Assembly: GCA_964647855.1 (NCBI GenBank)
Contig: CAZYJW010000002.1
Location: 244,399 to 308,398 of the forward strand
Direction: 5' to 3'
Source: Candidatus Micrarchaeota archaeon
GTDB lineage: Archaea; Micrarchaeota; Micrarchaeia; Anstonellales; Bilamarchaeaceae
Length of the DNA: 64,000 bases
This document shows, piece by piece, positions 1,298 to 64,000 of the stretch. Position 1 is the stretch's first letter. Each line of letters opens with the position of its first letter. Made by a program: the position numbers and the translations under genes. The notes under the pieces are model-generated. The model saw only the letters and a program-made list of their open reading frames with translations. It had not been told where the DNA came from and did not search any database.

Positions 1298-3148
1298 TCA
1301 GCCCTTGTCCTTGAGCAGTATCCTCGGGAAAATGTAAAGCGACTTTATCTCGTCGAGGAGCAGCTTGAACGCGTAGCTCATCTCGACGGGCTCCACGACC
1401 TCGGACTGGCATATCGGGCACAGGTCCCGGTTGCGCGCGTAGTCGTGGGTCGCTATCGAGCCGCACTCCGAGCACACGAGCTGCACGGTCTTGTCGCTCT
1501 CCTCGAGCAGCCTTTCCTTGATGAGCATGCTGGCGCCGTAGCCTATCAGGCAGTCGCGCTCCATCTCCCCGAACCTGAGGCCACCCTCGCGGGCGCGGCC
1601 CTCGGTCGGCTGGTGGGTGAGCAGCTGCACGGGGCCCCTCGAGCGCACGTGCATCTTGTTGGAAACGAGGTGGTGGAGCCGCTGGTAATAGACGACGCCC
1701 ATGAATATCCTGGCCTTAATCTGCTTCCCGGTCAGGCCGTCGTAGAGGATTTCCTCCCCGTGCTCCTCGAAGCCGTTCTTCTTGAGTATCGCCATGTATT
1801 CCTCTTCGGTGTTGCCGCCGAAGGCGGTGCCGTCCATAAGCATGCCGCCTATCGAGCCCGCGGTACCGCCGAGCGTCTCGAGCAGGTGCCCCGCGGTCAT
1901 GCGCGAGGGTATCGCGTGCGGGTTGACAATCAGGTCCGGCGTTATGCCGGAGCGCGTGAACGGCATGTCCTCCTGCGGGACGAGCAGGCCGATTACGCCC
2001 TTCTGCCCGTGCCTCGAGGCGAGCTTGTCCCCGATTTCCGGGGTCTTGACCGAGCGGACGCGGACCTTGACAAGGCGGTTGCCGCTCGGGCCCTCCGTGA
2101 CCATGACCGAGTCGACCTTCCCCTTCTCGCCGCTTTTTAGGGAGAGCGAACTCTCGCGCTTCTTCTCCTCCACGGCGCCGAACACTGATATCTCCTCGAG
2201 GAACCTCGGCGGCGACGTCTTGCCCACGAGGACGTCCTTGCTGCTCACGTCGCTCTCGGGCATCACGATGCCGTCTTCGGCGAGGTGCTTGTACGCGGCC
2301 TCGCCGCGGTATCCGACGACCTCGGGTGTGGGCAGCTCTATCTTGTCCTTCTGCCCGCCGGGGTACATCCTCTCCTCGGCCTCGTATGTCTTGAACATGG
2401 CGACGCGGTGGAGCCCGCGGTCGATGGCTGAGCGGTTCACGACTATGGCGTCCGCCATGTTGTATCCGTGATAGCTCAGGAGCGCGACGACGCAGTTCTG
2501 CCCGGCGGCCTTGTCCTTGAGGTTGAGCGCGCGGTAGAGGCTGGTCGATACGAGCGGCATCTGCGGGTAATACATCACATAGCCGCGGGTGTCATAGCGG
2601 GAATTGAAGTTCGTCGAATAGACGCCCAGCGACTGCTTCGCCATGGCGCAGGCCATCGTGATTCTCGGCGAAGAGTTGTGCTCCGAGTAGGGCAGGACGC
2701 CCGCGACGACCCCGAAGATGTTCGACGCGTCGACCTCGAGGTGGGTGTGGTCGGGGACGAGGTCCTTCTCGCTGAAAGCCACGTAGGCGTTCTCCTCCTC
2801 CTGGGCGTCGAGATATTCTATTATGCCCATCTTGACAAGGTGGTTCCAGTTGAGCTCGTTGTTCCTTATTCTCGCCGCGATTTCGGGCGTGAGCCTGGAC
2901 TTGCCGCCCTCCACGACGATGTACGGGCGCCTCACGCGCCCCTTGTCGGTGAGTATGTGGAGCTCGTTGAGCTTGGGATTGAAGTAAACGTTGACCTGGT
3001 TCGACAGCTCGTTCATCCTCCTGCGCTCGCGCAGCCTCTGAGCGAGGCTCTTCCCGTCGGGATGCGCCCCGACAATCCTGCCGTTCAGGAATATGCTCGT
3101 CCGCTCAGGAGCGGCCCTCCGTTTTCTGCGTCTGACCATGCATGCCAC
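1298..3148 (-). CDS. rpoB1: DNA-directed RNA polymerase subunit B' (C-terminal half of split subunit B)
   Basis: 616-aa ORF with RNAP beta-like motifs GDKLASRHGQKGVIG and PVQLLTHQPTEGRAREGGLRFGEMERD, plus a C-terminal Zn ribbon (CSECG...CPIC). Adjacent to rpoB'' and rpoA'. Confidence 0.95.
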   Translation of the reverse strand: MACMVRRRKRRAAPERTSIFLNGRIVGAHPDGKSLAQRLRERRRMNELSNQVNVYFNPKLNELHILTDKGRVRRPYIVVEGGKSRLTPEIAARIRNNELNWNHLVKMGIIEYLDAQEEENAYVAFSEKDLVPDHTHLEVDASNIFGVVAGVLPYSEHNSSPRITMACAMAKQSLGVYSTNFNSRYDTRGYVMYYPQMPLVSTSLYRALNLKDKAAGQNCVVALLSYHGYNMADAIVVNRSAIDRGLHRVAMFKTYEAEERMYPGGQKDKIELPTPEVVGYRGEAAYKHLAEDGIVMPESDVSSKDVLVGKTSPPRFLEEISVFGAVEEKKRESSLSLKSGEKGKVDSVMVTEGPSGNRLVKVRVRSVKTPEIGDKLASRHGQKGVIGLLVPQEDMPFTRSGITPDLIVNPHAIPSRMTAGHLLETLGGTAGSIGGMLMDGTAFGGNTEEEYMAILKKNGFEEHGEEILYDGLTGKQIKARIFMGVVYYQRLHHLVSNKMHVRSRGPVQLLTHQPTEGRAREGGLRFGEMERDCLIGYGASMLIKERLLEESDKTVQLVCSECGSIATHDYARNRDLCPICQSEVVEPVEMSYAFKLLLDEIKSLYIFPRILLKDKG

Positions 3149-3155
3149 CTTGCGA

Positions 3156-4619
3156 TTATTCCTTGACGTCGTACGCCCTCAGTATGCGCTCAATCTCCTC
3201 CTCTTCCACGCCGATTGAGACCTCGGCCATCACGGCGAGGTTCTTGACCAGCGAGCAGCTCGGCCCCTCCGGCGTCTCGTTGGGGCAGAGCTTCCCGATG
3301 TGCGTCCCGTGGAGGTCGCGGGCCTTGAAGTGCGGGTGCTTCTTTGACAGCGGTGAAATCACGCGCCGCAGGTGGGATATCGTCGAGAGATAGCTCACCC
3401 GGTCCAGGAGCTGCGAGACGCCGGTCTGCCCGGCTATCCAGTTGCCCGTGGCCATCGCGTACTTGATGCGGTCGCCCATCACGTCCTGCCTGATGAGCGT
3501 GTGCACCTGAAGCCTGCGGCCGCGCGCGTCCGCGCGCGACGCCTGGTAGACGAGGTCCTTGATGAGGAACTGGAACGCGTAGCGGAAAAGCTCCTCCATC
3601 ATGTCCCCCGCGAGCTTCACCCTCTTGTTCGCGTAGTGGTCCTTGTCGTCCGGGGCGATTTCCTTGTATGCGACGCGCGTCGCGCGCTCGGCCATCCTGA
3701 CCAGGTAGCGCGCCTTGTCTATGCGCGCGGCCTTCGTGACGCCGATGTGGGGGAGCAGGTAGTTGTCAATCAGGTTCTCCATCCTGTTGAGGCGGAATTC
3801 GGGCGGCTGGCCCGGGGAGAGCCGCCTGCTCAGCATGTCGATGGCCTCGTCCTTCGTGGTGGACTGCTCGCCCTCGAGGTTCAGTATCACGTCGTTCCGT
3901 ATGTGCTTTTCCTGGGTGAAGGTCGCGAGGATGTCGTCGTTCTTCTCGAGGCCGAGCACGCGGAGCATCTGGAGGAGCGGGATGCCGGAGGGCGTCGAGG
4001 GGAATTCCGCGGTATATACGCCGTCGTGGTTGCGCTCGACGACGCACCGGGCCCGAAAGCCGTAGTGCGTGGAGAAAATCTTGGAAACCACGCCGTTCCT
4101 CTCGTTCGTGACCATGAGCTTGTTGGGGACGAGGTCCTCTATCGAGGTGAGGACGCGCTCGCTGCCGTTGATGATGAAATACCCGCCCGGGTCTTCGGGG
4201 TCCTCGCCGTTCTCCACAAGCTCGTCCTTGCGCATGGTCGATAGGTAGCAGAGCTTGGATTTCAGCATGACCGGAAGCTCGCCGATGAACACGTCCGAAT
4301 ACACCGGGCGCTCGACGCCGTTGAACACCGGGATTATCTCGAGGAAGATGGGCGCGGAGTAGCTGAGGTTGCGGAGGCGGGCCTCGTTCGGTAGAATCTG
4401 CCGGTAGCCGCCCTTCACCTCGTAGTAGCGGGGCTGCTCTATCCTCACCTTTCCGAGCTTGAGCTCGAAGCCGTCCACGTTGGTCTGTATCTTCCCTATC
4501 CTGTCGACAACCTGCTGTATCCCCCCGTCGAGGAACTTGTTGTACGACAGCAGCTGCTGGTTGACCAGCGTGTTGACCCTGAAATAAGCCTCGGTAAGAC
4601 CCTCAACCATATAGAACAA
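3156..4619 (-). CDS. rpoB2: DNA-directed RNA polymerase subunit B'' (N-terminal half of split subunit B)
   Basis: 487-aa ORF whose N-terminal region resembles Rpb2/RpoB (for example YFIINGSERV and HPHFKARDLHGTHIGKLCPNETPEG). It lies 7 nt upstream of rpoB'. Split B is typical of many Euryarchaeota and DPANN-type archaea. Confidence 0.95.
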   Translation of the reverse strand: MFYMVEGLTEAYFRVNTLVNQQLLSYNKFLDGGIQQVVDRIGKIQTNVDGFELKLGKVRIEQPRYYEVKGGYRQILPNEARLRNLSYSAPIFLEIIPVFNGVERPVYSDVFIGELPVMLKSKLCYLSTMRKDELVENGEDPEDPGGYFIINGSERVLTSIEDLVPNKLMVTNERNGVVSKIFSTHYGFRARCVVERNHDGVYTAEFPSTPSGIPLLQMLRVLGLEKNDDILATFTQEKHIRNDVILNLEGEQSTTKDEAIDMLSRRLSPGQPPEFRLNRMENLIDNYLLPHIGVTKAARIDKARYLVRMAERATRVAYKEIAPDDKDHYANKRVKLAGDMMEELFRYAFQFLIKDLVYQASRADARGRRLQVHTLIRQDVMGDRIKYAMATGNWIAGQTGVSQLLDRVSYLSTISHLRRVISPLSKKHPHFKARDLHGTHIGKLCPNETPEGPSCSLVKNLAVMAEVSIGVEEEEIERILRAYDVKE

Positions 4620-5741: not shown

Positions 5742-6398
5742 TCATTTCTGCGCTTCAGGCGGTTTTGCGGCAGCCTCCGCATCGCGCGCTTGCTGCATTG
5801 ACTCCATGACGTCCTCCTCTGAAAGGAACGCGTAATCCGCTTTCAATAATTTTTCCGCGGACACCTTCCTCTTCCTGAAAGAGTACGAGGCTTGCAGTAT
5901 GTTCTCAAGCCCGGACCATGTGGAATACCAAATCAGCACGGAGTAGATGGTCAGCACCGGGACGGTCTCCAGCTCGGGCACGATGAACAGCGCCAGGGAC
6001 AGCAGGATGCCGACCGTGAGCCGGATTGCGCCGTTCCTGGCCTTTTCCTTCGCCTTCTGCTCGATTTCCCGCACACGCAGGCGGAAATGCTCCTTTAGCC
6101 TCTTCTTGATTAGCGCCTCGGTCTTTTCGGAGCGTGCCGCCCGGGGGAGGGTGAAGTTGACCGCGAATTCCCCTTTCCCGGTGGAGAGGCATCGCCGGCG
6201 CAGCTCGTAGAGGAAGTCCTCGGAAAGGAGCCGCTTGTTGTACGGGGACGGGTCGAAATCCGAGAAGATGTCGTCATAGTCGTCAAGCGCGATGTCGGCC
6301 CGCTGGAGGACGTCGGAGACCGTCTCCTTGGGGATTGCCGCTCCGCCCTTCTGCTGGGGCTCCTTCGGGGCGGGCTTCTGCTCCTCCTTCTCTGCCAT
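5742..6398 (-). CDS. Hypothetical membrane protein (acidic N-terminus, two predicted TM helices)
   Basis: 218-aa ORF. Hydrophobic segments GAIRLTVGILLSLALFIV and VPVLTIYSVLIWYSTW. No recognisable family. Confidence 0.55.
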   Translation of the reverse strand: MAEKEEQKPAPKEPQQKGGAAIPKETVSDVLQRADIALDDYDDIFSDFDPSPYNKRLLSEDFLYELRRRCLSTGKGEFAVNFTLPRAARSEKTEALIKKRLKEHFRLRVREIEQKAKEKARNGAIRLTVGILLSLALFIVPELETVPVLTIYSVLIWYSTWSGLENILQASYSFRKRKVSAEKLLKADYAFLSEEDVMESMQQARDAEAAAKPPEAQK

Positions 6399-39572: not shown

Positions 39573-40928
39573 ATGGCTGAGGACCGGGAGGGGTTCCTCG
39601 CGCACTGCGGCGAGATGCGCCGCCTGGCGCTCTCGTTCAAAGAGCCCCTGGTTGTGCACCATTACGACGCGGACGGGCTCAGCTCCGGCGCGATTGTGTC
39701 GGGGGCCCTCCGGGACGAGGGCAGGCCCTTCAGGCGCTCCTGCATAAAAAAGCTGGACGATTACGCCATCGAATCGCTCCGGCACGAGAAGGAGATAATA
39801 TTCGTGGATTTGGGCGGCGGGAACCGCAGGGTGGACGAGCTTGCGGACGTGCTCATAATAGACCACCACCAGACCGAGGGGATAGGGAAGCCGCAGGCCA
39901 ACCCGCTAATGTTCGGAATCGACGGCGGACGCGAGCTCTCGGCATCGGGCACGGCGTACTGCGTCTTCAGGAGATTCCCCGACCTCGCGGTGGTCGGGGC
40001 GGTCGGCGACATGATGCGCCCGCTTTCGGGCATGAACCGCTGGGTCATGGAGCAGGGCGTCGCCTCGGGCGAAATCCGTGTCGAGGAGGATTTGCGCTTC
40101 TACGGCCGCCACTGCAGGCCCCTCGTGCAGTTCCTCGCCTACAGCGACGACCCGTACATCCCGGGCATATCCTACCGCGAGGACCGCGCCGCAGCGCTGC
40201 TTTCCGACCTAGGGATTCCGCTGGAGTCTCCGGCTTCTGCAGGCGGCGCGCCCGATTCACGCGCCGGGCGGCGCGTCTATGCGGACCTTTCGGATGGCGA
40301 GAGGAAGGCGCTTGTGAGCGCGCTCGCGAAAATCCTCATATCCTCCAACAGGCTCCGGAGCCCGGACGAGCTCATCGGCGAAAGCTTCGTGTTCCCCCGC
40401 CGGCCGAAGGACGAGGCCTTCGAGGCGGACGAGTTCAGCACCCTCCTGAACGCCTGCGGAAGGCATTCGCAGCCGGACATAGGGGTGAGGGTCTGCCTGG
40501 GCGACGAATCTGCCCGTGCCGAAGCGCGGAATCTCCTCGCCTTGCACCGCAGGATGCTGCGGGGCGGGATTTCCTACGCTTCGGGGAGGACGCAGGATTT
40601 CGGGGCGTTCTTCCTGCTGGACGGGCGCGGGAAAATAGATGAGGGGATAATAGGCGTGGTCTGCGGCATGGGCCTGCAGCAGGGGTGGGGCAAGCCGATA
40701 ATCGGGCTTGCGCTGGGCGAGAATGATACCGTGAAGGTCTCCGGGCGCGCCCCGAGGGCGCTCGTCGCATCCGGCCTGAACCTCGGCGCCCTTATGAAGG
40801 AGGCGGCCGCCGCATGCGGCGGAATCGGCGGGGGGCACAGGATTGCCGCCGGCGCGTCGATACCTATGGATAAGGTGAATGATTTCCTGCTTTCCGCAGG
40901 AAGGCATCTGAACAACGATCAACAGTGA
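39573..40928 (+). CDS. DHH/DHHA1 phosphoesterase, archaeal RecJ/GAN (Cdc45-like) family
   Basis: Motifs VVHHYDADGLSSG (DxD), IFVDLGGG, LIIDHHQ (DHH), and GGGHRIAAGASI (DHHA1 GGGH) near the C-terminus. 451 aa. Confidence 0.75.
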   Translation: MAEDREGFLAHCGEMRRLALSFKEPLVVHHYDADGLSSGAIVSGALRDEGRPFRRSCIKKLDDYAIESLRHEKEIIFVDLGGGNRRVDELADVLIIDHHQTEGIGKPQANPLMFGIDGGRELSASGTAYCVFRRFPDLAVVGAVGDMMRPLSGMNRWVMEQGVASGEIRVEEDLRFYGRHCRPLVQFLAYSDDPYIPGISYREDRAAALLSDLGIPLESPASAGGAPDSRAGRRVYADLSDGERKALVSALAKILISSNRLRSPDELIGESFVFPRRPKDEAFEADEFSTLLNACGRHSQPDIGVRVCLGDESARAEARNLLALHRRMLRGGISYASGRTQDFGAFFLLDGRGKIDEGIIGVVCGMGLQQGWGKPIIGLALGENDTVKVSGRAPRALVASGLNLGALMKEAAAACGGIGGGHRIAAGASIPMDKVNDFLLSAGRHLNNDQQ

Positions 40929-51964: not shown

Positions 51965-52291
51965 ATGATGGCAAAGGGGAACAGTCAGAAGGCGTCCGCT
52001 CCGCAGGCCGGCAGCCAGCACCGGCTGGAGGATGTCGAGCGGATGGAGGCCCTCGCGCTCGAGAAGGCGAACCAGTGGATATCCGCAATCGAGAACGCGA
52101 TGGCGGTCTGGGAGCTCTCCCAGGAGAAGCCGTCCGAGTTCGAGGAGAGGGCGGGCAAGCTCAAGTTCATCCATGAGGAGCTCTCGGGCTGGGAGAGGGA
52201 GATGCTGCTCCACAAGGGCAAGGACGAGCCAGTGCAGGAAAGAATCGCCCGGCTCAAGGAGTTCACGGAAATCTGCTACAAATACACGTGA
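51965..52291 (+). CDS. Small helical protein (108 aa) immediately upstream of giant ORF 2
   Basis: The track ORF is preceded by the AT-rich ATATTATAATAA at 51923-51934. Its stop codon lies within the SD-like GTGAGG that precedes the giant ORF ATG at 52297. Confidence 0.6.
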   Translation: MMAKGNSQKASAPQAGSQHRLEDVERMEALALEKANQWISAIENAMAVWELSQEKPSEFEERAGKLKFIHEELSGWEREMLLHKGKDEPVQERIARLKEFTEICYKYT

Positions 52292-52296
52292 GGCTT

Positions 52297-55200
52297 ATGA
52301 CACAGCAGCAAAGAAGGCAGGCGGCGCCGCCCCAGGCGGAGCAGCCGATAGCGGAACGTGTCATCCACGACATGTCGAGGACGCCCGCCATGATGGCGGG
52401 CCGAGAGACCGCGGCAAGGGCGTTCCTGCAGGAGCAGCAGGCCGCGCTCGAGGCCCGAAGGGCGAGCGAGCGCCTTGCGGCCACGCTCGGCATCACCCCG
52501 ACGCGCACCGCCGAGGCCGCCCGTGCCGACTTCGACCAGGCAGCGGGAGCCATGCGCGCGAGGCTGGCCGCGCTGCGCGAGCACAACGTCGGCGTGGAAA
52601 GCCTGGACAGGAGGAACCAGCAGATCGTCCAGATTCTCGAAAGGCAGCTCGGCAGGATTGAGGAGAGGGCGCGCAGCGGGGACACAGAGGGCGCCGGACA
52701 GGCGATGAGGGCCTTCTCTACGGTCATGAACGGCGTTGCGAGGACCGCCAGCATCGTCGCTAACATGGTGCGCGAGGGCGCACCGCCCCAGCTCGCCGAG
52801 CGCGTGGACCAGGCGTCCGCGTTCGATGTCGGCGGCGCGTCGCTCCGCGCGAGGGCGCTGCGCAGGGTCGGCGAGGTTTTCACGGCCCGCGCCGCAGTGT
52901 TCCGCGCGCGCGAGGGCGAGGGCGTGACGCGAGACCTTGCGCAGGAGGCGCTGCGGCTCACTTCGGTCGAAAGCAACCAGACCGACCTGACAAGGGAGCA
53001 GTACGACGCTTCGATGAGGACGCTCGAGACAATCAGCACGACCGCCACCTCCATCGGCAACGAGCTCAACCGGCTCTATCAGAGCACGCTCACATATTAT
53101 CTCCAGACGCTCGCGGAGGTCCTCACCCGCGACGTATCGGACCAGGTGAAGCAGAGGATTCGCAGGCTCATACAGGACGTCACCGAGACGAGGGACCGCT
53201 ACGGCAGGGAGGGGGAGACGCCCCCGACCGAGGCGGAGCTGGGCTCCATCGCATCGAGGATACGCACCGCGCAGGAGGCTGCCGATGCGCTAAGCGACAA
53301 GACAACGCTGACAGCCGAGGCGCGCAGGCACCTTGAGACGGTCTACGTCGGGGCGCTGGACGCCCTCGCAGCCGGAAGGACGCAGGCGGGCGAAACGCTT
53401 TCCGCCGCTGCAGACGAAATCAGGCGCCTCGGGCGCGCGGCAGGATTCGGCAGGCTCGGGCGCGACGCCAGGCGGGCTGTGAGCGAGTATCTCTCGTCGC
53501 TCGCCCGCGCAGCGGGCGCGATAGCCTCTGCGGAAACGCCGGAGGCCCGCGCCGAGGCCGAAGGGACCATGCGCGCGACCATCGCGAGGCGACTCGCGGG
53601 CGAATTGCAGGGGGCCGCAAGGACGCTCGGGGGGGAGAGCGAGAGGCTGCTGAACGGAATCATCGGCCAGCTCGGCGAGCATCCGGAAAGGGCGACCATG
53701 GACAATCTCAGGGCCCTTGCTGGCGCGCTTTCCGCATGCCAGAAGATGCTCGGCTTCGCGAACGTGAGGATGCCTGAGGAGCAGCGCCAGGCTCTCACGG
53801 GAATCTTCAACCGAGGCCTGCAGGCGATTGCGGGCGGCGACCTCCGCTCGGCGGGCATGCAGTTCAGGCTGATGGACCTTTATGCCTCGAGGGACGCGAC
53901 GGCAACGCAGCGCAGCGAGCTGAACCAGCTGTCCCAGATGCTCGCCACGCAGGGCGCAGCGGCGCTCGACGTCATAGACAGGTACATGAGGGTGAACGAC
54001 CGCATAACGAACCTGCGGACGCAGGCTGCAAGGGGCAGCCTCGGGCGCAGCGAGCGCGCCGAGTTCGACCGCCTGATAAGCGAAATGGAGAGGATGAGGG
54101 CGAACCTCGCGGCGAGCGGCAGCATGGTATCCGACGAGGAGGCCGCCGCACACGTGACTGCCCTTCGCGCGAGGATGCGCGAGAACCGGGAGTTCAGGGA
54201 CACGATAGCGAACCTCGTGCGGGTCAACCGCAGGGAGGGCGAGACCGAGGAGCAGGCCGAGGCGAGAATCCTCGACTATGTCGCCCGCGGGGAGCTCGAG
54301 GAGGCCGCCCAGCGGAGATTCGATGAGATGGGCAGGCTCGCCGACTCGTTCCTCAGCTCGCTGGGGGCGCGGCAGGGCAGGGAAAGGACGAACGTGGTCA
54401 CGATTTTCAGGAACGCCATAAGCGCCCTTCTTGGCGGGAACATGGAGGACGCCCGGAGATTCAGGAGCGCCGGCGAGGCGTACGCCAGCCTCCGGGACCC
54501 GAGGGACAGGCGCACGCTCATGGACATACTCGCCGGAACGGAGGGCAGGCCCGCCCCGCGGGCAGGCCAGAGCGTGTTCACAGAGCGCGAGCTGAGGATG
54601 CTGGATGTTCTCGGCCAGTGGTCCAGGTTCGACGAAACGGTGAGAGGGACCGGGGAATCGAGGAACGCCAGGGCATATTTCGACCTTGCGATGTGGGTCG
54701 CGAGGCAGGGCACGCGCGAGGAGTTCCAGCTTGTCATGGACATGGCATCCGCATACGGCGCGATAGCGTCCGTGGACCCGCGCACGCTGCCGTCCGAGAT
54801 GCGCGAGCAGCGGTCCGCCGAGATGAGGAGGATACAGGGCGCACTCGGCGACTTCTCGCGGGAGGCCCGGCGCCTTTCCGACATAGGTGCGGACAGGGCG
54901 CGTGGAGGATGGAGGCCGCGCGAGGGCCAGCTGACGCCGCTTGCGGGGGCGATAGTGCTCGAAGGCTCGTTCACGCGAAGGCTCGGCGAGGGAGACGCTT
55001 CGCTCGCCCCAGGGCTCTCCGGGGATGCGCTCGCGGAGGCGCAGACCGAGGCGGGCGCAAGAAGGCTCGTCGAGCTCCAGGGCCAGGCCGACGCCGCGGG
55101 AAGGCTCGCCCAGAGCCTCGGCTTCGAGGTCAGGTGCCGGCAGGCCGAGGGCCCGGCATCGGCGGAGCGCGCCACCGAGCGCAGGTACCAGCGCGTCGCA

Positions 55201-58200: not shown

Positions 58201-61200
58201 GACGCGTCGCTGCTGCTCGGCTCCTGGATAGGCTCTGAGGAGATAAGGTACAACGAGGCGACATTCGCGATAGCCGACCGCTCCTGGAGGGCCGCAATGA
58301 GGGCCTCGCGCGGCGAAGTCGACGGAAGCAGGACGCTGCTTGCGAGGGTGGACGAGCTGACGCCGGAGCTTTCCACCGCGCGTGGCCAGGTGCAGGACTG
58401 GGCCAGCTACCAGAGGGCGGCGGGTCTTGGCATCGACATCGTTGCGATTGCCGGCACGGCGATATTCGCGCCGGAGTTCCTGCCCGCGACATTCATGATG
58501 ATGGGCGCCCGCGGCGTGGGCGAGGGTCTCGAGATGCGCAGGCAGGCCGGCGAGTGGACCGGAGAGGCCATATTCGCGACTTCGATGGGCGCGGCGGGCA
58601 TGGTGCTCGTGCCGCTTTCCGAGGCGGCATCTCTGATGAGGGCCGCCCAGATAACCCGCGGCCTCGCCAGGGGCGCGCAGTGGGCCGAGAGGGCGGTGGC
58701 CGCAGAGGAGGCCATGGCCGTCGGGTTCCGCGGCTCGAGGCTCACATCCCTCATGAGTGCTGGGCAGGCCGAGCGCACCGCGCTCATGGAGGCCGCGCAG
58801 GCGCTCGGGGAGGGACGGACAGTGCTTACTACCGGCGGGCAGATGCTTCGCGCGGGCACGCCCGAGGCCGCCGCATTCCTCGGGCAGGACGCCGGATTCC
58901 TCGTGAGGGCGGGCCAGTACGTTCGCGGAGGCGCGGAGCTGACAGCGTTCCAGAGGGCCGTCCACATAGCGGGCCTTGGAATGATGGGTGCCGGCGGAGG
59001 GCAGTTCCTATACCACCTGCCCCAGCAACTTGACGCGCTCGGAAGCGGGCAGACCACGCTGCTGGAAGTCGGGCTCGGCGCATGGCTCTCGGTCGGCCAG
59101 GCGGTCGGCCAGGGAGCGTATGCCATCCGCGCCGCAGGCTCGGCAGGCCCCACGAGCGGATACATACCGAGGCCGATGCAGTACCTGGCGGCGGCCGCAT
59201 TCGGCATACCTCTCACCCCGAGGCCTGCGCACGTCATGGCGAGGGACAGCGCGCTTGCGGCGCGCGAGCTCGCGCGCATGCCCGCGCAGGAGCGCACGTC
59301 CTACGAGGCTTACAGGGACAGGAACCGCATCACGCTCGACCCGTCCGAGGAGAGGGCGATTGTTCGCGACTACAACGAGGCGAGGACGCGCGCGGAATCA
59401 AGGGGCGAGACGCTCACGTTCGATTCGTACATGCAGAGGCCGACCGCCGAGGGCGCAAGGAGGCTTTCTGCGGCGGCCTTGGAATCCGGGTACCAGTTGT
59501 ACAGGGCGGGGCAGATGCCCGCGTCGGACCTCACGCCCGCCCTGCGCGCATATTCCGAATCTCGGGCCGGGGGAGCGGAGCCGCTCGATGCGGCGGCCGC
59601 GGCGCTAAGGGCGCCGGCGCAGCCCCAGCCGGCGGAGGCTCCGGCAGGGCCCTCGCGCGCGGCGAGCATGGCGGCGCGCAGGGAGCGCGCTGGCGCGGCT
59701 GCCCGCCTCGAGACGGAGCGCAGGCAGTATGGGCAGGACATCGCGCCCCACATAGACAGGGTCGCAACTGATTCCGGCGCAACGATACCCCCCGCGCTTC
59801 GCGCTTCCGCGGCCGACCTCGCGTTCCATGCGGAAAGGCTCGCAACCGCGCCACCCGGGCAGAGGGCCGAGGTGCGCGCATCGATACCCGAGAGGCTGCG
59901 CACCTCCGCGGAGGTGCTCTCGCGGGAGCCCGAGTTCAGGGACGCGATTATCGGGCGGGACGGCGCGCGGCTTGAAACCCCGGACCGTTCGGCTCAGATG
60001 AGGGCCGCCCTGGAGGAGGCCGCGACGATGCCGGCCCATTCCGGAATGCCGGAGACGTCGCGGATGAGGCTCGCGCTGAACACGGAACGCATCATAGGCA
60101 TGAGGGACCTCACGGCCGAGGACCTCTCGGGCCATGCGGAGAGATACGAAAGGCGGGCGGGAAGCCTGCGCGAGGAGGGCAGGACCGCAGAGGCCGACGC
60201 ATGGGCCCGTAGCGCGGGCAGGCTCAGGGCGGAGGCCGCCCGGCGCGCGCCTGCGGCTCCGGGCGAGGAGGCCCGCGCAGCTCCGGCTCCTAGGCCGCGC
60301 GCGGCTCCCGCCGAAGAACATGTTCCCGCCGCGCCGCGCGCAAGGCCGCCGGAGACTGCGGCCGCAAGGAGCAGGAGGGATGCGGTCGCCGATGCTCCGG
60401 CCCAGGACCAGTTCAGCCCGGACGCCGTCGCAAGAAGGATTTTCGAGCGCTCGCGCCAGGAGGGAAGGGAAGCGTGGACAACCGGCGGCCCGCTGCTCGA
60501 AACCGGCACCATACTCCGCAGCGTGGAGGATTACGTCCTGCGCCTCGCCCGGGCCGGGGAGGAGCGCGACGTGGTGGTTCTCACCGGGGACAAGACGCTG
60601 CTGAATGCAATCAACGAGTTCCTCGGAAGGGAATGGGGCGACATCGGCCTCGACGCATACCAGGCGATTCTCCAGCGCGCCATCAGCAGGGTCATAAGGT
60701 CCGGCGGGGGCACAAGGCCCGGCGAGGACGTCGCGCTTGTCAGGCCCTCGGCACGGAGCGACGAGACGGTTTCCGTGCTCGTGCTCCGCCGCGGCAGGGG
60801 CGAGCAGGTCCGCGCGAACCTGCAGAGGGAGATAGAGGCCGCGACAAGGTGGGTTATGGAATCGCCTGAGTCGCCATTCCGCGCCCAGTTCGCGAGAATC
60901 CGCGGGCTGGTAAGGGACCCGGCCGGCCTAGCGGCCGCGAGCACCGAGCGCAGCAGGGTCATCAGGATACGCAGGGACGAAAGGGGGCGCGTAACCGCCA
61001 CATATGCGGGCGGGGAGAACGCGTTCATACGGAGGCCGGAAGGGAGGACCGAGTTCCTCACGGCCGCGGTGACGAGGACCGACGACCCGCATTTTGCGGG
61101 AGGGCTGCGCAGGGAGGTGCACCTGAGGGAGGACCCGAACGTCAGGCCCGCGCTCGAGCCCTATGAGCAGGGCCGCGTCCAGGACGCATGGCAGCGCAGG

Positions 61201-64000
61201 GAGGCGCCCAGAAGCGACGCCGAGAGGGCGATGGTGGCAAGGATGGAGGCCGTGCTCAGGGAGAGCGGCGCCGAGCCGTCCCGCGCCAGCGCCGAGCAGG
61301 TCGAGGCCGCGATAATGAGGGTCGCGTGGGAGAGGGCGAATCTCCCCGAAAGAGGGGTGGTCGGCGCTGAGGGCGTGGCGCTCGAAATAAGGCTGAGCGT
61401 GACCGACCCCGCGACGCTCGCGAGGCTTAGGGGCTTGCTTCCGGAGACCGGAAAGGGCCTTGCGGAGGTCCTCGCGAACCGCTTCGGCATCAGGGGATTC
61501 AACACGTTCTTCGGGCATGACGGCGCCAACGCCGCAATCAACCTTGTCGAAGCCGCAGTCGCATCGTACGCCACGAGGCACAATCTCACCATAAGGAGGA
61601 TGGGGACGCTCAAGTACGTGATAGAGGGGGGCACTCCGGAGCTCGCGCGCGGCCTCCAGGATTTCATTTCGGAGCACCTCCAGACCAGCGGCACCGCGCT
61701 CGGGGTCGCGAGGGACATCCCGGTCATCCCTGTCGGCGCTGATACTTCGGTGGCCACAGCGCTCGCGCACGTTGCAAACGGCCACATGGTTGTGGAGCGC
61801 AGGAGCCTCGAGCGCAGATTCCCGCATCTTGCCGGGATGACGGACGCCGAAATCCGGGCCACCGACTGGGACGGGGAAATCCAGAGGTACGCGGACGCGA
61901 ACGCACTCATCAACGCGATGGGGAACCGCATGGCAAGCGATGCGCTCCTGCGGACGCTCCTCGGCGACAGCTATGACGCCATGGCCCCCATAATCCAGCT
62001 TGTCAGGGGACGCAGGGACATCAGGAATTTCGAGGACCTCGTGCTCGCGCTGAGGGACCCGCAGATAGGCGGTGCGCAGGGGCGCGTTCTCGAAGGCGCG
62101 TTCCGCAGATTCGTCGTGGAGGAGGGCCGCGCGTTCAGGCTGAGGGTGGAGGCCATACCACGGCCCATGAGGCCCGCCGAAAGCGAAGCGCAGGCGGTGC
62201 GCCTGCGGCTCGTTGCAGGTGGCGAAGCCGAGGCCGCCGCGGGGGGAAGGGCCAGGCGCGAGGAGGCGCCAAGGCCCGCGCTTCCTTTCAGAGAGAGGGA
62301 GGTCCACAGGATGGAGCGCGAGGTAGGCGCGATTCCGCAGCCGCGCGCCGACGCGGTGTTTTCCAGAGGCCCGCCCGAACTTCTGGCGATAGCCCGCGTC
62401 CTTGATTCCATGGTCCCCGGAAGCACCGTGCTTTCGGAAGGCGGGCTTCGGAACCTGATGCGCAGGTATCCCGAGTATGCCGAAGCCCTGCGGGCGATGA
62501 ATGAGATTGAGCCTGTCGGCCGCGACCTTGTGATAGAGGCTCACGCGCCGAGAATCCTTTTCGAGCGCGCGAGCCTCCGGCTCGAGCACGCGATAGCCGG
62601 CGCGGGGGATTCTCCAGCGGTCGCCGAGACCGCAAGGCTGATGCTGCGCGGGAAGCACGGGCTGGTGCAGTCTTTCTCCGAGATGGGCTCGCTTGACCTG
62701 AACGTATTCACAAGGGTGCAGGAGAGGATGGCGCTCGGCATGGGCGAAGCCGATGCCATCCTGTCCGTGGCGCGGGAAATTAACGGGGGCGGGTCTTCGC
62801 CGCCCCCCTCGCCGAGTCCGATCCCGACAGGGCCCAGGGGCGGCGGCGGGCCCGGAAGGGGAAGGAGGCCCAGGGGGGGCGAACGGCCGGTTCTCAGAGT
62901 AGTGAGGCCGGATGAAACAGCCGCCAGGGCGCCGGCAGCTCCGCCCGCACGCACGGATGCGAGGGCACCCGCGCCTGTCCCGGAGGCGTTAGTGCCAGGC
63001 GGGTTCAGGGACGCCGCAAGGAGGGCAGCGGGGGCAGCCGCAGAAAGGCGCACCGGACCGGCGGACCTTGCGGCAAGAAGGGAAGCAATGCTTCTCGAGC
63101 AGGCACAAGCACGCGAGCGTACGCTCGTTTCGCCGCGAGATTTGGCGGAATTCGCGAGGATGGTCGCAAACGGCGAGCAGGTGCAGGCGGGACGCGTGCG
63201 CCTCAGCGCCCGCGACCTTTTGAGCAGGATGGACGTGCGCGTGCAGGGCGAGGTCCTTGCGCTCGCAAACGATGCGGCTTTCGCGCAGGCCGCGCGCAGG
63301 CCGGCCGCAGGCGGCGACGACGTGTTCCGGCACCACCTCCAGGGCAGGAGGGCCGAGGTGGAGGCGAGGGCGGGGCGCATCAGGGGCGCCGCCCCGGCGG
63401 AGCGCGAGGCCGCAGCCAGGACCGGAACCGACGATGCAGCTGCAGCGCCGCCTTCAGCGGTAGGCAGGTTGGCTGAAGCGGGCCCGATAGCGCCCGGCAG
63501 CATAGTGGCTATGAGCGGGCCCCATGTTTCGCCGTCGCGCTACAATCATCTGCTCGGCGCGTACCAGCACATGGAGGCCGGAAGGCCGAGCGGTGCGGGC
63601 CCGCGGACAGAGCGGCTCGCCAGGCAGGCTTACGAGCAGGTCAGGCGCGGGGTTCCGCGCGAGCAGGCGGTTGCGAACATACTCGATGCCAATCCCCCGA
63701 GAGGGAGGGACGACCTCGGCTCCGTTGCCATGGAGCTCTTCGATGTCGCGGAGGCGATGGTGTCCGGCAATCCGGAGAGGGTTGCGGCTGCAAGAAGGCA
63801 TTTCGAAACGCTTGGTGCTATGCAGCGGGACGCGCTCCTTTTCCTAATAAGCGAGGGAAGCGGATTCTCGCAGGGCGATGCCGCCCATAGGGCGGTGATG
63901 GCGGAGCGCCTCGCAAGGAGCATAGAACTCGAGCAGGGCGGGCTTGTCGAGCCCCTTTCAAGGGACAGGGTTGTCGCGCTTGCACGCGCCGCAGACCGGC
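52297..64000 (+). CDS. Giant protein 2 (more than 3,900 aa, partial; runs off the right edge), unknown family; central hydrophobic block and two GGDEF/palm-like domains
   Basis: Hand translation from ATG 52297 (MTQQQRRQAAPPQAEQPIAERVIHDMSRTPAMMAGRETAARAF...) stays open to the end of the window. The ORF track lists no plus-strand ORF in this frame after 52297, as expected for one ORF lacking a stop in the window. Frames were spot-checked at 60541-60600 and 61441-61560. Confidence 0.8.
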   Translation, partial: MTQQQRRQAAPPQAEQPIAERVIHDMSRTPAMMAGRETAARAFLQEQQAALEARRASERLAATLGITPTRTAEAARADFDQAAGAMRARLAALREHNVGVESLDRRNQQIVQILERQLGRIEERARSGDTEGAGQAMRAFSTVMNGVARTASIVANMVREGAPPQLAERVDQASAFDVGGASLRARALRRVGEVFTARAAVFRAREGEGVTRDLAQEALRLTSVESNQTDLTREQYDASMRTLETISTTATSIGNELNRLYQSTLTYYLQTLAEVLTRDVSDQVKQRIRRLIQDVTETRDRYGREGETPPTEAELGSIASRIRTAQEAADALSDKTTLTAEARRHLETVYVGALDALAAGRTQAGETLSAAADEIRRLGRAAGFGRLGRDARRAVSEYLSSLARAAGAIASAETPEARAEAEGTMRATIARRLAGELQGAARTLGGESERLLNGIIGQLGEHPERATMDNLRALAGALSACQKMLGFANVRMPEEQRQALTGIFNRGLQAIAGGDLRSAGMQFRLMDLYASRDATATQRSELNQLSQMLATQGAAALDVIDRYMRVNDRITNLRTQAARGSLGRSERAEFDRLISEMERMRANLAASGSMVSDEEAAAHVTALRARMRENREFRDTIANLVRVNRREGETEEQAEARILDYVARGELEEAAQRRFDEMGRLADSFLSSLGARQGRERTNVVTIFRNAISALLGGNMEDARRFRSAGEAYASLRDPRDRRTLMDILAGTEGRPAPRAGQSVFTERELRMLDVLGQWSRFDETVRGTGESRNARAYFDLAMWVARQGTREEFQLVMDMASAYGAIASVDPRTLPSEMREQRSAEMRRIQGALGDFSREARRLSDIGADRARGGWRPREGQLTPLAGAIVLEGSFTRRLGEGDASLAPGLSGDALAEAQTEAGARRLVELQGQADAAGRLAQSLGFEVRCRQAEGPASAERATERRYQRVAADLRESSEEARAAGDLQVADFYSQEAARVDRGFVRTSVGAARSAFARGQDALEEARGLVREADDAATKSADQMRTRIGELRAALPPARQAEVDQMLRQAGTDEAQVRVVYTGLLRLRAQERSREGTTLVEDAGLMLDGISSYDRSVRSVTTIHSYSGRRELQIGVLTLAAVSEGYDVDLLGQPVMVREAPAAAGAQPQEVRARASVERLAALRGNGRGQVAVGLRSVEGQERIMRARWSTVTRAQREVRDANETRIRGIIDNMLQDGGPGNPPLIADAGARERFRARLAAIGGVTDREQRARQYQQLYLEVGRAAGVRTESRGAPEWLTAGGRGVRGETLYDAEAHYRRYRTAVGLAYRERFDAASTHIRSSSIEIRESGALATNRVNERRLTLARDEARGNSFGLAHLADLRRWGMVSEGVGIWGNTYDTMFEHVMRTPAVAMEQVGAMIEHLPPAERESYRARLDSALRRGVERRSSAVLDIWMELASRHVNPPQTEEPGRMGRRSTTLLDAVVGQDLFYYDADGLERRILRARGMRREGNSTGAESEMDGALSDMAVLETAERRGIERTRDERTFWARYHERHPSRRRGFGEAGRTARERLTREIPRRPDGEEVDERTRGAIEDNNAAREPEIRGIEASADRSIGYMRSSVRASSAAIDELLMHREPVDIASPEIAQELYFALPEEAQRRYRQYIDRLPSNGESTETAEARRAALEFYNALRGNSADFGAAVGRMRRESGPGGTFSNMVGVLAQLEADQATLQYRTWDYNEAYARQTAEFLVQYAGTELDRMENAENRRYLTSSQEHHDFARTNRYGWAPHGGEYRASYQHRERATRALEFASALLEEGNARRAADIIQNNEVLTARGMYRETRTPREWHDDHGLRLGLAHRQGNEYGFRATDQLCGLIYRGRMEVLSYYDEDAMAAARPRMQQMAEMEIEHTLRSLGIQRTVGADDEIYYERWQPPSEEAAQAFADSGRRLMNQLGEHDSFILGQSDASLLLGSWIGSEEIRYNEATFAIADRSWRAAMRASRGEVDGSRTLLARVDELTPELSTARGQVQDWASYQRAAGLGIDIVAIAGTAIFAPEFLPATFMMMGARGVGEGLEMRRQAGEWTGEAIFATSMGAAGMVLVPLSEAASLMRAAQITRGLARGAQWAERAVAAEEAMAVGFRGSRLTSLMSAGQAERTALMEAAQALGEGRTVLTTGGQMLRAGTPEAAAFLGQDAGFLVRAGQYVRGGAELTAFQRAVHIAGLGMMGAGGGQFLYHLPQQLDALGSGQTTLLEVGLGAWLSVGQAVGQGAYAIRAAGSAGPTSGYIPRPMQYLAAAAFGIPLTPRPAHVMARDSALAARELARMPAQERTSYEAYRDRNRITLDPSEERAIVRDYNEARTRAESRGETLTFDSYMQRPTAEGARRLSAAALESGYQLYRAGQMPASDLTPALRAYSESRAGGAEPLDAAAAALRAPAQPQPAEAPAGPSRAASMAARRERAGAAARLETERRQYGQDIAPHIDRVATDSGATIPPALRASAADLAFHAERLATAPPGQRAEVRASIPERLRTSAEVLSREPEFRDAIIGRDGARLETPDRSAQMRAALEEAATMPAHSGMPETSRMRLALNTERIIGMRDLTAEDLSGHAERYERRAGSLREEGRTAEADAWARSAGRLRAEAARRAPAAPGEEARAAPAPRPRAAPAEEHVPAAPRARPPETAAARSRRDAVADAPAQDQFSPDAVARRIFERSRQEGREAWTTGGPLLETGTILRSVEDYVLRLARAGEERDVVVLTGDKTLLNAINEFLGREWGDIGLDAYQAILQRAISRVIRSGGGTRPGEDVALVRPSARSDETVSVLVLRRGRGEQVRANLQREIEAATRWVMESPESPFRAQFARIRGLVRDPAGLAAASTERSRVIRIRRDERGRVTATYAGGENAFIRRPEGRTEFLTAAVTRTDDPHFAGGLRREVHLREDPNVRPALEPYEQGRVQDAWQRREAPRSDAERAMVARMEAVLRESGAEPSRASAEQVEAAIMRVAWERANLPERGVVGAEGVALEIRLSVTDPATLARLRGLLPETGKGLAEVLANRFGIRGFNTFFGHDGANAAINLVEAAVASYATRHNLTIRRMGTLKYVIEGGTPELARGLQDFISEHLQTSGTALGVARDIPVIPVGADTSVATALAHVANGHMVVERRSLERRFPHLAGMTDAEIRATDWDGEIQRYADANALINAMGNRMASDALLRTLLGDSYDAMAPIIQLVRGRRDIRNFEDLVLALRDPQIGGAQGRVLEGAFRRFVVEEGRAFRLRVEAIPRPMRPAESEAQAVRLRLVAGGEAEAAAGGRARREEAPRPALPFREREVHRMEREVGAIPQPRADAVFSRGPPELLAIARVLDSMVPGSTVLSEGGLRNLMRRYPEYAEALRAMNEIEPVGRDLVIEAHAPRILFERASLRLEHAIAGAGDSPAVAETARLMLRGKHGLVQSFSEMGSLDLNVFTRVQERMALGMGEADAILSVAREINGGGSSPPPSPSPIPTGPRGGGGPGRGRRPRGGERPVLRVVRPDETAARAPAAPPARTDARAPAPVPEALVPGGFRDAARRAAGAAAERRTGPADLAARREAMLLEQAQARERTLVSPRDLAEFARMVANGEQVQAGRVRLSARDLLSRMDVRVQGEVLALANDAAFAQAARRPAAGGDDVFRHHLQGRRAEVEARAGRIRGAAPAEREAAARTGTDDAAAAPPSAVGRLAEAGPIAPGSIVAMSGPHVSPSRYNHLLGAYQHMEAGRPSGAGPRTERLARQAYEQVRRGVPREQAVANILDANPPRGRDDLGSVAMELFDVAEAMVSGNPERVAAARRHFETLGAMQRDALLFLISEGSGFSQGDAAHRAVMAERLARSIELEQGGLVEPLSRDRVVALARAADR

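Follow-up and report, generated by a model that had tools for sequence, protein, structure and literature searches.

A conserved cassette of two GGDEF-like palms in giant and free-standing proteins of Micrarchaeota

Why should a giant archaeal protein carry two stretches that resemble the GGDEF palm of nucleotidyl cyclases? We considered this question for a window of 64,000 nucleotides (positions 244399-308398 of contig 2, CAZYJW010000002.1) in the genome of a Candidatus Micrarchaeota archaeon (assembly GCA_964647855.1; 1.36 Mb, 4 contigs, 81% complete). Both stretches lie within a single open reading frame (ORF) on the forward strand, giant ORF 2, which starts at a GTG codon at 52288 (an alternative ATG lies at 52297), stays open through the end of the window at 64000 and continues in the contig to a stop at the window-equivalent coordinate 73143, giving a protein of 6,951 amino acids (aa). 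Residue numbers are counted here from the GTG; 3 is to be subtracted for numbering from the ATG, which was used in a first-pass annotation of this DNA and in the database entry P0002. That annotation had proposed two degenerate GGDEF-like modules inside the protein, and the strings that it quoted are found in the ORF from 52288: for module 1, 'VVVLTGDKTLL' from aa 2762 (60571), 'RSDET' at aa 2823 (60754-60768) and 'REIEAA' ending at 60843 (aa 2852); and for module 2, 'GIRGFNTFFGHD' from aa 3067 (61486), 'MGTLKY' at aa 3105 (61600-61617) and 'DFISEHL' ending at 61680 (aa 3131).

We found that the two modules belong to one conserved unit, which we call the two-palm cassette. A HMMER search with aa 2700-3330 against 1.8 billion representative proteins matched 39 representatives, comprising giants of 4,000-7,300 aa and free-standing proteins of 481-592 aa, and both modules were present in the same order in 38 of them, the exception (P0037) being a short sequence of 248 aa. 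Metagenome bins of Micrarchaeota or other DPANN archaea are the source of all the nearest relatives in the database and of all related loci. In giant ORF 2, the conserved cassette spans aa ~2735-3300 (~570 aa; 60490..62187, forward strand, as are all of its parts) and is bordered at both ends by linkers rich in Pro, Ala and Arg. It begins with module 1, a divergent GGDEF-type palm (aa 2755-2860; 60550..60867), followed by a family-conserved inter-module region (aa 2861-3024; 60868..61359) of short beta-hairpins ('RVTATY..NAFI') and then helices, by module 2, a degenerate GGDEF-like palm (aa 3025-3165; 61360..61782), and by a C-terminal helical part (61783..62187) with the motif 'IRNFEDL..ALR', which reads 'IRD[AT]EDLV' in the free-standing members. 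The inter-module region gave no significant match, the weak ones being to RHS_repeat (E 0.08-0.5). As the following evidence indicates, the cassette is a new and unannotated branch of the GGDEF palm superfamily, in which a putatively active and an inactive palm form a fixed tandem.

Are the modules homologous to GGDEF domains? Palm-domain similarity was found by both profile and structure searches, and for module 1 we consider GGDEF homology, in sequence and in fold, very probable. First, although the copy in the window scores only 12.1 bits (E 0.17; gathering cut-off 23.8) with the Pfam GGDEF model (PF00990) on a 131-aa piece around module 1, the same module of a paralogous giant on contig 4 reaches 24.8 bits in a six-frame search of the genome, above the cut-off, and that of a giant from another genome reaches 22.5 bits. 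Sub-threshold matches to the Pfam model were also obtained for three of six close homologues (best E 0.0015) and, on module 1, for the distant free-standing members P0027 and P0034. Second, hhalign aligned module 1 in canonical register with a profile made from 31 canonical GGDEF domains of Micrarchaeota (probability 90.8%, P 1.2e-6). Third, AlphaFold2 (AF2) predicted the elements of a palm in the expected order, namely beta1 (2760-2767), alphaA (2781-2804), a beta2/beta3 hairpin (2814-2818 and 2828-2834) and alphaB (2838-2858).

The conserved residues of module 1 follow the same register. D2768, which with K2769 occupies 60589..60594, is the first Asp of 'DxD' at the end of beta1 and is Asp in 68 of 69 members; N2776...G2784-D2785 (60613..60642) match the base-contact motif 'IND..GH..GD', N2776 and G2784 each being kept in 67/69 and D2785 in 48/69 (elsewhere N, E, Q, T or G). 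R2819...S2824-D2825-E2826-T2827 (60742..60768) is the counterpart of 'RxGG[DE]EF' with a turn two residues longer; in the hhalign register, S2824 takes the place of the second Gly, and D2825/E2826 are the third and fourth residues of the signature. Here R2819 is kept in 64/69, whereas Ser or Gly at 2824, D2825 and E2826 are each found in 69/69. The module 1 signature thus reads [SG]-D-E-[GTVA], with the Gly-Gly lost, and several homologues have SGDEV or RGDEV. We take D2768, N2776, D2785 and R2819 to be the counterparts of D327, N335, D344 and R366 of PleD; in PleD and WspR, the beta1 Asp is a metal ligand and the Asn and Asp of 'IND..GD' contact the base. K2769, which directly follows the metal Asp and has no canonical counterpart, is Lys in 69/69.

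The first-pass annotation had held the GGDEF signature to be replaced, and the palm degenerate, in both modules. In module 1 the signature is not fully replaced, as its D-E pair is kept in 69/69, and the palm is not aptly called degenerate, as all of its alignable catalytic residues are retained. Because variants of the form [A/S]GDEF are experimentally active cyclases (PMC13725321) and the D-E pair is kept here, module 1, judged by its residues, is to be regarded as divergent, with every alignable catalytic residue kept, and not as catalytically degenerate. Replacement of the 'GD' Asp alters product specificity in Hypr GGDEF enzymes (PMC13725321), and the variability of this position in module 1 hints at a variable base specificity.

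For module 2, a GGDEF-like palm fold is likely. hhalign placed it on the same profile in canonical register (probability 56.7%, P 1.1e-4), and P0036 gave a sub-threshold Pfam GGDEF match on this module. Its AF2 elements are a strand at 3029-3033 ('ALEIR'), alphaA at 3068-3097, a hairpin at 3101-3106 and 3109-3113, alphaB at 3117-3133 and strands at 3138-3140 and 3146-3149. When module 2 was modelled alone (aa 3015-3170, 33-sequence alignment), the predicted local distance difference test (pLDDT) was 89.1 and the predicted template modelling score (pTM) was 0.83, and the best Foldseek matches were to the GGDEF domain of WspR (3i5c_B, 9t28, 3bre_B; probability 0.94-0.99, TMq 0.45-0.48, root-mean-square deviation (rmsd) 4.2-4.9 A). 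Other matches were to the GGDEF domains of TM1788, GcbC and LapD and to the adenylyl cyclase Ma1120 (probability 0.97).

In module 2, degeneracy and a replaced signature, as first proposed, are indeed seen. The hairpin 'MGTLKY' stands in the place of GGDEF, reading GTLKY in the giants and 'GGYLQY' in the free-standing members, and an acidic pair occurs there in no family member; the position of the canonical metal Asp is F3066, and 'GD' reads AN. The conservation of metal-binding Asp and Glu residues, which had been singled out for checking, is accordingly a property of module 1 and not of module 2, and module 2, having no hairpin acidic pair, would be unable to catalyse alone. Another set of residues is kept instead: K3056-G3057, R3069, N3072-T3073 and N3081 (61453..61530) are in register with 'FK.IND..GH..GD', and K3056 and N3072 are each found in 71/71 members, T3073 in 66/71, R3069 in 57/71 and N3081 in 62/71 (Asp in 9), while E3033 on the first strand is found in 66/71. 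The strict retention of K3056, N3072-T3073 and N3081 suggests that module 2 has an active role beside module 1 and is not a relic.

Could these resemblances be devoid of functional meaning, the modules being structural alpha/beta elements like the RNA recognition motif (RRM) in a giant scaffold that came to look like GGDEF by convergence or chance? The ferredoxin/RRM-like fold is very common, all Foldseek E-values exceed 0.001, and the window copy taken alone has no significant database match. We nevertheless consider this explanation very unlikely. When 140-aa windows of the family alignment were moved across aa 2700-3330 and compared with the GGDEF profile, P values of 1e-6 to 8e-6 appeared only over module 1 and of 5e-5 to 7e-5 only over module 2, against 0.06-0.55 where neither motif core was included and 0.017 and 0.0013 where module 2 was partly overlapped; the GGDEF template that had been proposed for both modules is followed in the proposed register and above background. 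The paralogue lies above the curated Pfam cut-off, and invariance across the 69-71 members, at 20-50% identity, falls on precisely the positions at which the modules agree with GGDEF.

A further argument comes from lysine. Giant ORF 2 contains 14 Lys in 6,951 residues (0.2%; Arg, 12.9%), and three of the 14, K2769, K3056 and K3109, lie on the motifs of the cassette. In no other column of the cassette is Lys kept by all six giants that we compared, four of which, like giant ORF 2, have less than 0.6% Lys. K2769 and K3056 are Lys in every family member. The three residues resist whatever removes Lys from the giant proteins.

The structural comparisons raise a second alternative, that the cassette is a template-dependent or template-independent polymerase, primase or enzyme like reverse transcriptase (RT), extending a nucleic-acid chain by means of module 1. 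An AF2 model of the whole unit (aa 2700-3330, 6-sequence alignment; mean pLDDT 72.9, pTM 0.58) has the beta-alpha-beta-beta-alpha core at both modules, and Foldseek matched it in the PDB to palm enzymes only, with every E-value at 0.02 or worse. GGDEF chains were among these matches with a probability of 0.99-1.00 (4zmm_B, at 23% identity, 6et7_B and 5llw_B), and Taq-type polymerases, tandem adenylyl cyclases, Cas10 and defence reverse transcriptases were poorly superposed. Family A DNA polymerases (Taq, Aquifex Pol I), retron, DRT and Abi-P2 reverse transcriptases and a group II intron RT were indeed returned for both models, but with probabilities of 0.1-0.85, TM scores of 0.1-0.4 and rmsd values of 8-27 A, compared with probabilities of 0.94-1.00 and rmsd values of 4-5 A for GGDEF. 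Moreover, the sequence profiles point to GGDEF only, and scans with Pfam, NCBIfam, PADLOC and PHROGs detected no fingers, thumb or RT motifs. We therefore regard a polymerase as very unlikely, and GGDEF as the best match for both modules in sequence profile as well as in structure.

How does the cassette relate to known systems? With the GGDEF domains of diguanylate cyclases such as PleD and WspR, bacterial enzymes that make cyclic diguanosine monophosphate (c-di-GMP) from two GTP, and especially with the 'class II' variants whose signature is [A/S]GDEF, it shares the beta-alpha-beta-beta-alpha palm core in both modules and, in module 1, the motifs in register: the Asp at the end of beta1, 'IN', 'G...GD..L' and the hairpin 'R...[SG]DE'. 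It differs from them in that module 1 has a Lys directly after the metal Asp and not the Lys of 'FK', in that module 1 is fused to a second, inactive palm and a helical domain, and in its restriction to Micrarchaeota and other DPANN archaea. Because the window copy falls below the curated score and lacks two defining GGDEF features, we do not file it as a plain GGDEF member. Module 2 resembles the degenerate GGDEF domains of LapD, PelD, FimX and GdpP, in which the fold is likewise kept and the acidic signature residues are replaced, and LapD is among its Foldseek matches (6pwj_B, probability 0.95); unlike those proteins, it has neither an I-site nor a partner EAL domain.

A second parallel is provided by the C1/C2 pair of class III cyclases (mammalian membrane adenylyl cyclases and soluble adenylyl cyclase), which, as in the cassette, has two homologous palms per chain, one with metal-binding acidic residues and the other with Lys, Asn or Arg. 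Tandem adenylyl cyclase chains and Ma1120 are among the Foldseek matches (6r4p_A, 4cm0, 5d0h_A); class III adenylyl cyclases nevertheless superpose worse on the cassette than GGDEF does, and a C1/C2-type interface in the cassette is assumed. Guanylate_cyc (PF00211) gave no match in the segment (E up to 10) or in the genome (E up to 0.01). Membership of the class III nucleotidyl cyclases was rejected, as there was no PF00211 match and the structural matches were secondary to GGDEF.

The likeness to Cas10 that the first-pass annotation had noted is valid only as an analogy. Cas10 and mCpol share with the cassette paired palms, one of which bears the acidic signature; both make nucleotide signals, and we propose a product of this kind for the cassette. 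As a statement of kinship, however, the likeness fails: Foldseek gave a probability of 0.15-0.38 and TM scores of 0.12-0.18, and no CRISPR components occur among the Pfam domains of the immediate upstream genes or of giant ORF 2. Unlike Cas10, the cassette has no HD domain and no GGDD, and its order, active before inactive, is the reverse of that of Cas10. No HD nuclease, GGDD palm, Zn ribbon or D2/D4 domain was found in the giant by Pfam, NCBIfam or PADLOC, and the Cas10 and mCpol models of PADLOC gave no match. Membership of the Cas10 family was rejected on the absence of these defining domains and on the Foldseek values.

The remaining library searches yielded no annotation for the cassette. 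Pfam scans of the 3,904-aa window part and of the 3,047-aa remainder of giant ORF 2 gave nothing in the cassette, a downstream Metallophos domain being the only match, and NCBIfam and PHROGs matched neither the cassette nor its free-standing paralogue. PADLOC returned only a non-significant 'oligonucleotide cyclase' match on module 2 (E 0.0075, 13.4 bits), on which we do not rely, and phmmer with the segment and hmmsearch with a 6-sequence profile gave chance-level matches only (DtxR, L23) against PDB sequences.

How might such a cassette work? Beyond homology, folds, obligate pairing and residue conservation, the catalysis, division of labour, product and topology described here are what we infer. 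The chances seem to us about even that the cassette is a nucleotide cyclase or transferase, tethered to the membrane, in which one palm is active and the other assists it. Module 1 would bind a nucleoside triphosphate with Mg2+ or Mn2+ and catalyse nucleotidyl transfer, because the metal Asp, the Asn, the mostly kept Asp, the Arg and the invariant Asp-Glu pair are retained. Module 2 would hold the second (acceptor) nucleotide or stabilise the transition state through its Lys, Asn-Thr, Asn and Arg, and the two modules would pair within the chain as a pseudo-heterodimer that has a single asymmetric active site, in the manner of C1/C2 of adenylyl cyclase and Palm1/Palm2 of Cas10. The product, made at the membrane, might be a dinucleotide or oligonucleotide, cyclic or linear, or a cyclic nucleoside monophosphate. 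The tether is suggested by two hydrophobic segments, aa 2041-2077 and aa 2090-2123 (58408..58656, forward strand), which in a Kyte-Doolittle scan are the sole strongly hydrophobic stretches of giant ORF 2, which is otherwise without a signal peptide. They probably constitute a transmembrane hairpin, with which the parts of the protein before and after it would share one side of the membrane, probably the cytoplasmic one.

Several observations weigh against this interpretation. Module 1, whose Pfam score in the window copy is low, aligns with positions ~24-115 of the 161 of the GGDEF profile only, so that the C-terminal third of GGDEF, its phosphate-binding part, is unaligned; in addition to the longer hairpin and the replaced Gly-Gly, the position of the 'FK' Lys is Asn (N2773). 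The DxLT turn, named as the start of the GGDEF domain (PMC13725321), was not found upstream of beta1 in the family alignment. Single-sequence scans of 33 module 2 members with Pfam GGDEF gave no match, and the best Foldseek E-value for module 2 was 0.009 with every TM score below 0.5. The pTM of the whole-unit model is only 0.58, and contact between the two modules is an assumption; hhalign does not link module 1 to module 2 (P 0.02), which leaves an origin of the modules by internal duplication unsupported. Canonical diguanylate cyclases are homodimers of two active domains and not pairs of an active and an inactive one.

A third alternative, the main one, bears directly on catalysis: the cassette may be a non-catalytic nucleotide sensor or receptor, which binds GTP, c-di-GMP or another signal and relays it to the giant protein. 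Degenerate GGDEF domains serve as receptors in PelD, LapD, FimX and similar bacterial proteins, and LapD is one of the structural matches of module 2, which has no catalytic acidic residues. Bacterial GGDEF domains that bind only GTP or c-di-GMP are documented (PMC13725321). The genome also has a possible source of such a signal, in that two canonical GGEEF proteins are encoded (131.5 and 101.5 bits), and 33 of the 81 genomes that we sampled across the phylum have canonical GGDEF above the Pfam cut-off; since searches of this genome (81% complete) found neither EAL nor PilZ nor a class III cyclase, c-di-GMP receptors are unaccounted for. The I-site (RxxD, five residues ahead of the hairpin), at which GGDEF receptors usually bind c-di-GMP, was however found by eye in neither module, and the invariant D...DE of module 1 (68-69/69) is a signature of metal catalysis that is usually lost in pure receptors. 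On balance, we consider a receptor somewhat unlikely. The two canonical GGEEF proteins are encoded on contig 1, at 326728-327204 and 280322-280669, both on the reverse strand.

The first-pass annotation had regarded a second-messenger or polymerase-like activity inside a giant protein as unusual. The palm pair is present in the giant, but it is not peculiar to it. The genome contains three copies of the cassette: in giant ORF 2, in the contig-4 giant (5,706 aa) and in a free-standing gene of 574 aa (contig 2, 153413-155137, forward strand), ~91 kb upstream of the window. With the free-standing gene as single-sequence query, a protein search identified orthologues in 31 database clusters (38-67% identity), and every named organism among them is a member of Micrarchaeota. 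This gene and the L3-L4-L23-L2 ribosomal-protein operon are transcribed away from each other, and it occupies the same site in at least two distant Micrarchaeota bins; beyond it lie two small unknown genes (~185 aa each), an EMC3/TMCO1-like insertase, a cytidylate kinase (called in two relatives) and TruB/Cbf5. Because the genomic site is the same in distant relatives, we regard the free-standing gene as a vertically inherited core gene and not as a mobile or defence gene. Five of the 81 sampled genomes, all of one family, contain the cassette at E up to 1e-5, a count that holds for the genomes searched and does not prove its absence from others. In a midpoint-rooted FastTree phylogeny of 70 cassettes, read for its topology only and not for its support values, most of the free-standing copies are apart from the copies inside large proteins.

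The neighbours of the giant gene are genes for prolyl-tRNA synthetase and a DHH/DHHA1-CID nuclease, giant ORF 1 and small unknown ORFs; neither this neighbourhood nor that of the free-standing gene gave a functional clue. The DHH/DHH-CID/DHHA1 protein (39573-40928, forward strand), a GAN/RecJ-Cdc45-like nuclease, lies directly 5' of giant ORF 1, and its stop abuts the start of that ORF (40928/40929).

Giant ORF 2 is itself of unusual composition, with just 7 Cys in addition to its few Lys. Other long frames of the same genome are also poor in Lys: the contig-4 giant has 0.63%, and three frames on contig 3 have 0.20% (2,927 aa), 0.17% (2,910 aa) and 0.29% (1,396 aa). The adjoining giant ORF 1 (2,805 aa) has 4.9% Lys and the free-standing paralogue 4.4%, and Lys is at a normal level (4.9-9.7%) in some homologous giants from other genomes. 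Escape from Lys-targeted modification or proteolysis is among the possible causes of this avoidance.

Downstream of the cassette by ~1,300 residues, and past the end of the window, giant ORF 2 contains a calcineurin-like phosphoesterase of the PPP/ApaH type (aa ~4410-4520, window-equivalent ~65.5 kb; Metallophos, E 4.7e-8) with the motifs GDVHGD, GDYIDRG and GNHE. It is weakly similar to the Pnkp phosphatase and to bis(5'-nucleosyl)-tetraphosphatases, and its substrates could be nucleotides or phosphoproteins. Further on, at aa ~5830-6020, two near-identical repeats of ~100 aa are recognisable by eye ('...RGITPMDAIGMEPRDTYFRENSINYNGVYEQGGRRYAEFTLRGEEGTPQVRVY...RGITRRQYFEQAL'), and a related copy lies near aa 4235-4300.

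Returning to the synthase interpretation, we can state it in its fullest form: the cassette would be a previously unrecognised archaeal nucleotide-signal synthase, with a single asymmetric site and a messenger other than c-di-GMP, and a core gene of a Micrarchaeota lineage. Taken together, this remains a speculative and, in our estimate, unlikely combination. The extension that the same cassette has also been built into near-Lys-free, membrane-anchored giants, where it may act at the contact with a host, we hold equally tentatively.

To our knowledge, c-di-GMP-type signalling was long thought to be absent from archaea. Earlier work regarded archaeal GGDEF as doubtful and noted in Micrarchaeum a response regulator with an 'inactivated GGDEF' (PMC5847659). 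Canonical archaeal GGDEF cyclases, some of them of DPANN origin, followed in a study of 2026 (PMC13725321), in which activity of such archaeal enzymes was first shown. Full-text searches that paired GGDEF or diguanylate cyclase with Micrarchaeota or DPANN led to these two papers only, and no comparable cassette, tandem or degenerate, is described in either. The cassette adds to the canonical enzymes a second and far more divergent branch of the superfamily, confined to the tiny, host-dependent Micrarchaeota, which the domain libraries that we searched have missed and which is found both as a fixed core gene and inside giants of 5,000-7,300 residues to which no function has been assigned. It provides a first enzymatic foothold in the giant proteins of DPANN archaea, with D2768, K2769, D2825/E2826, K3056 and N3072 as candidates for mutation. 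If it is true that the cassette makes a nucleotide signal, it would offer a concrete lead on how symbionts among the DPANN archaea sense their partners or manipulate them.

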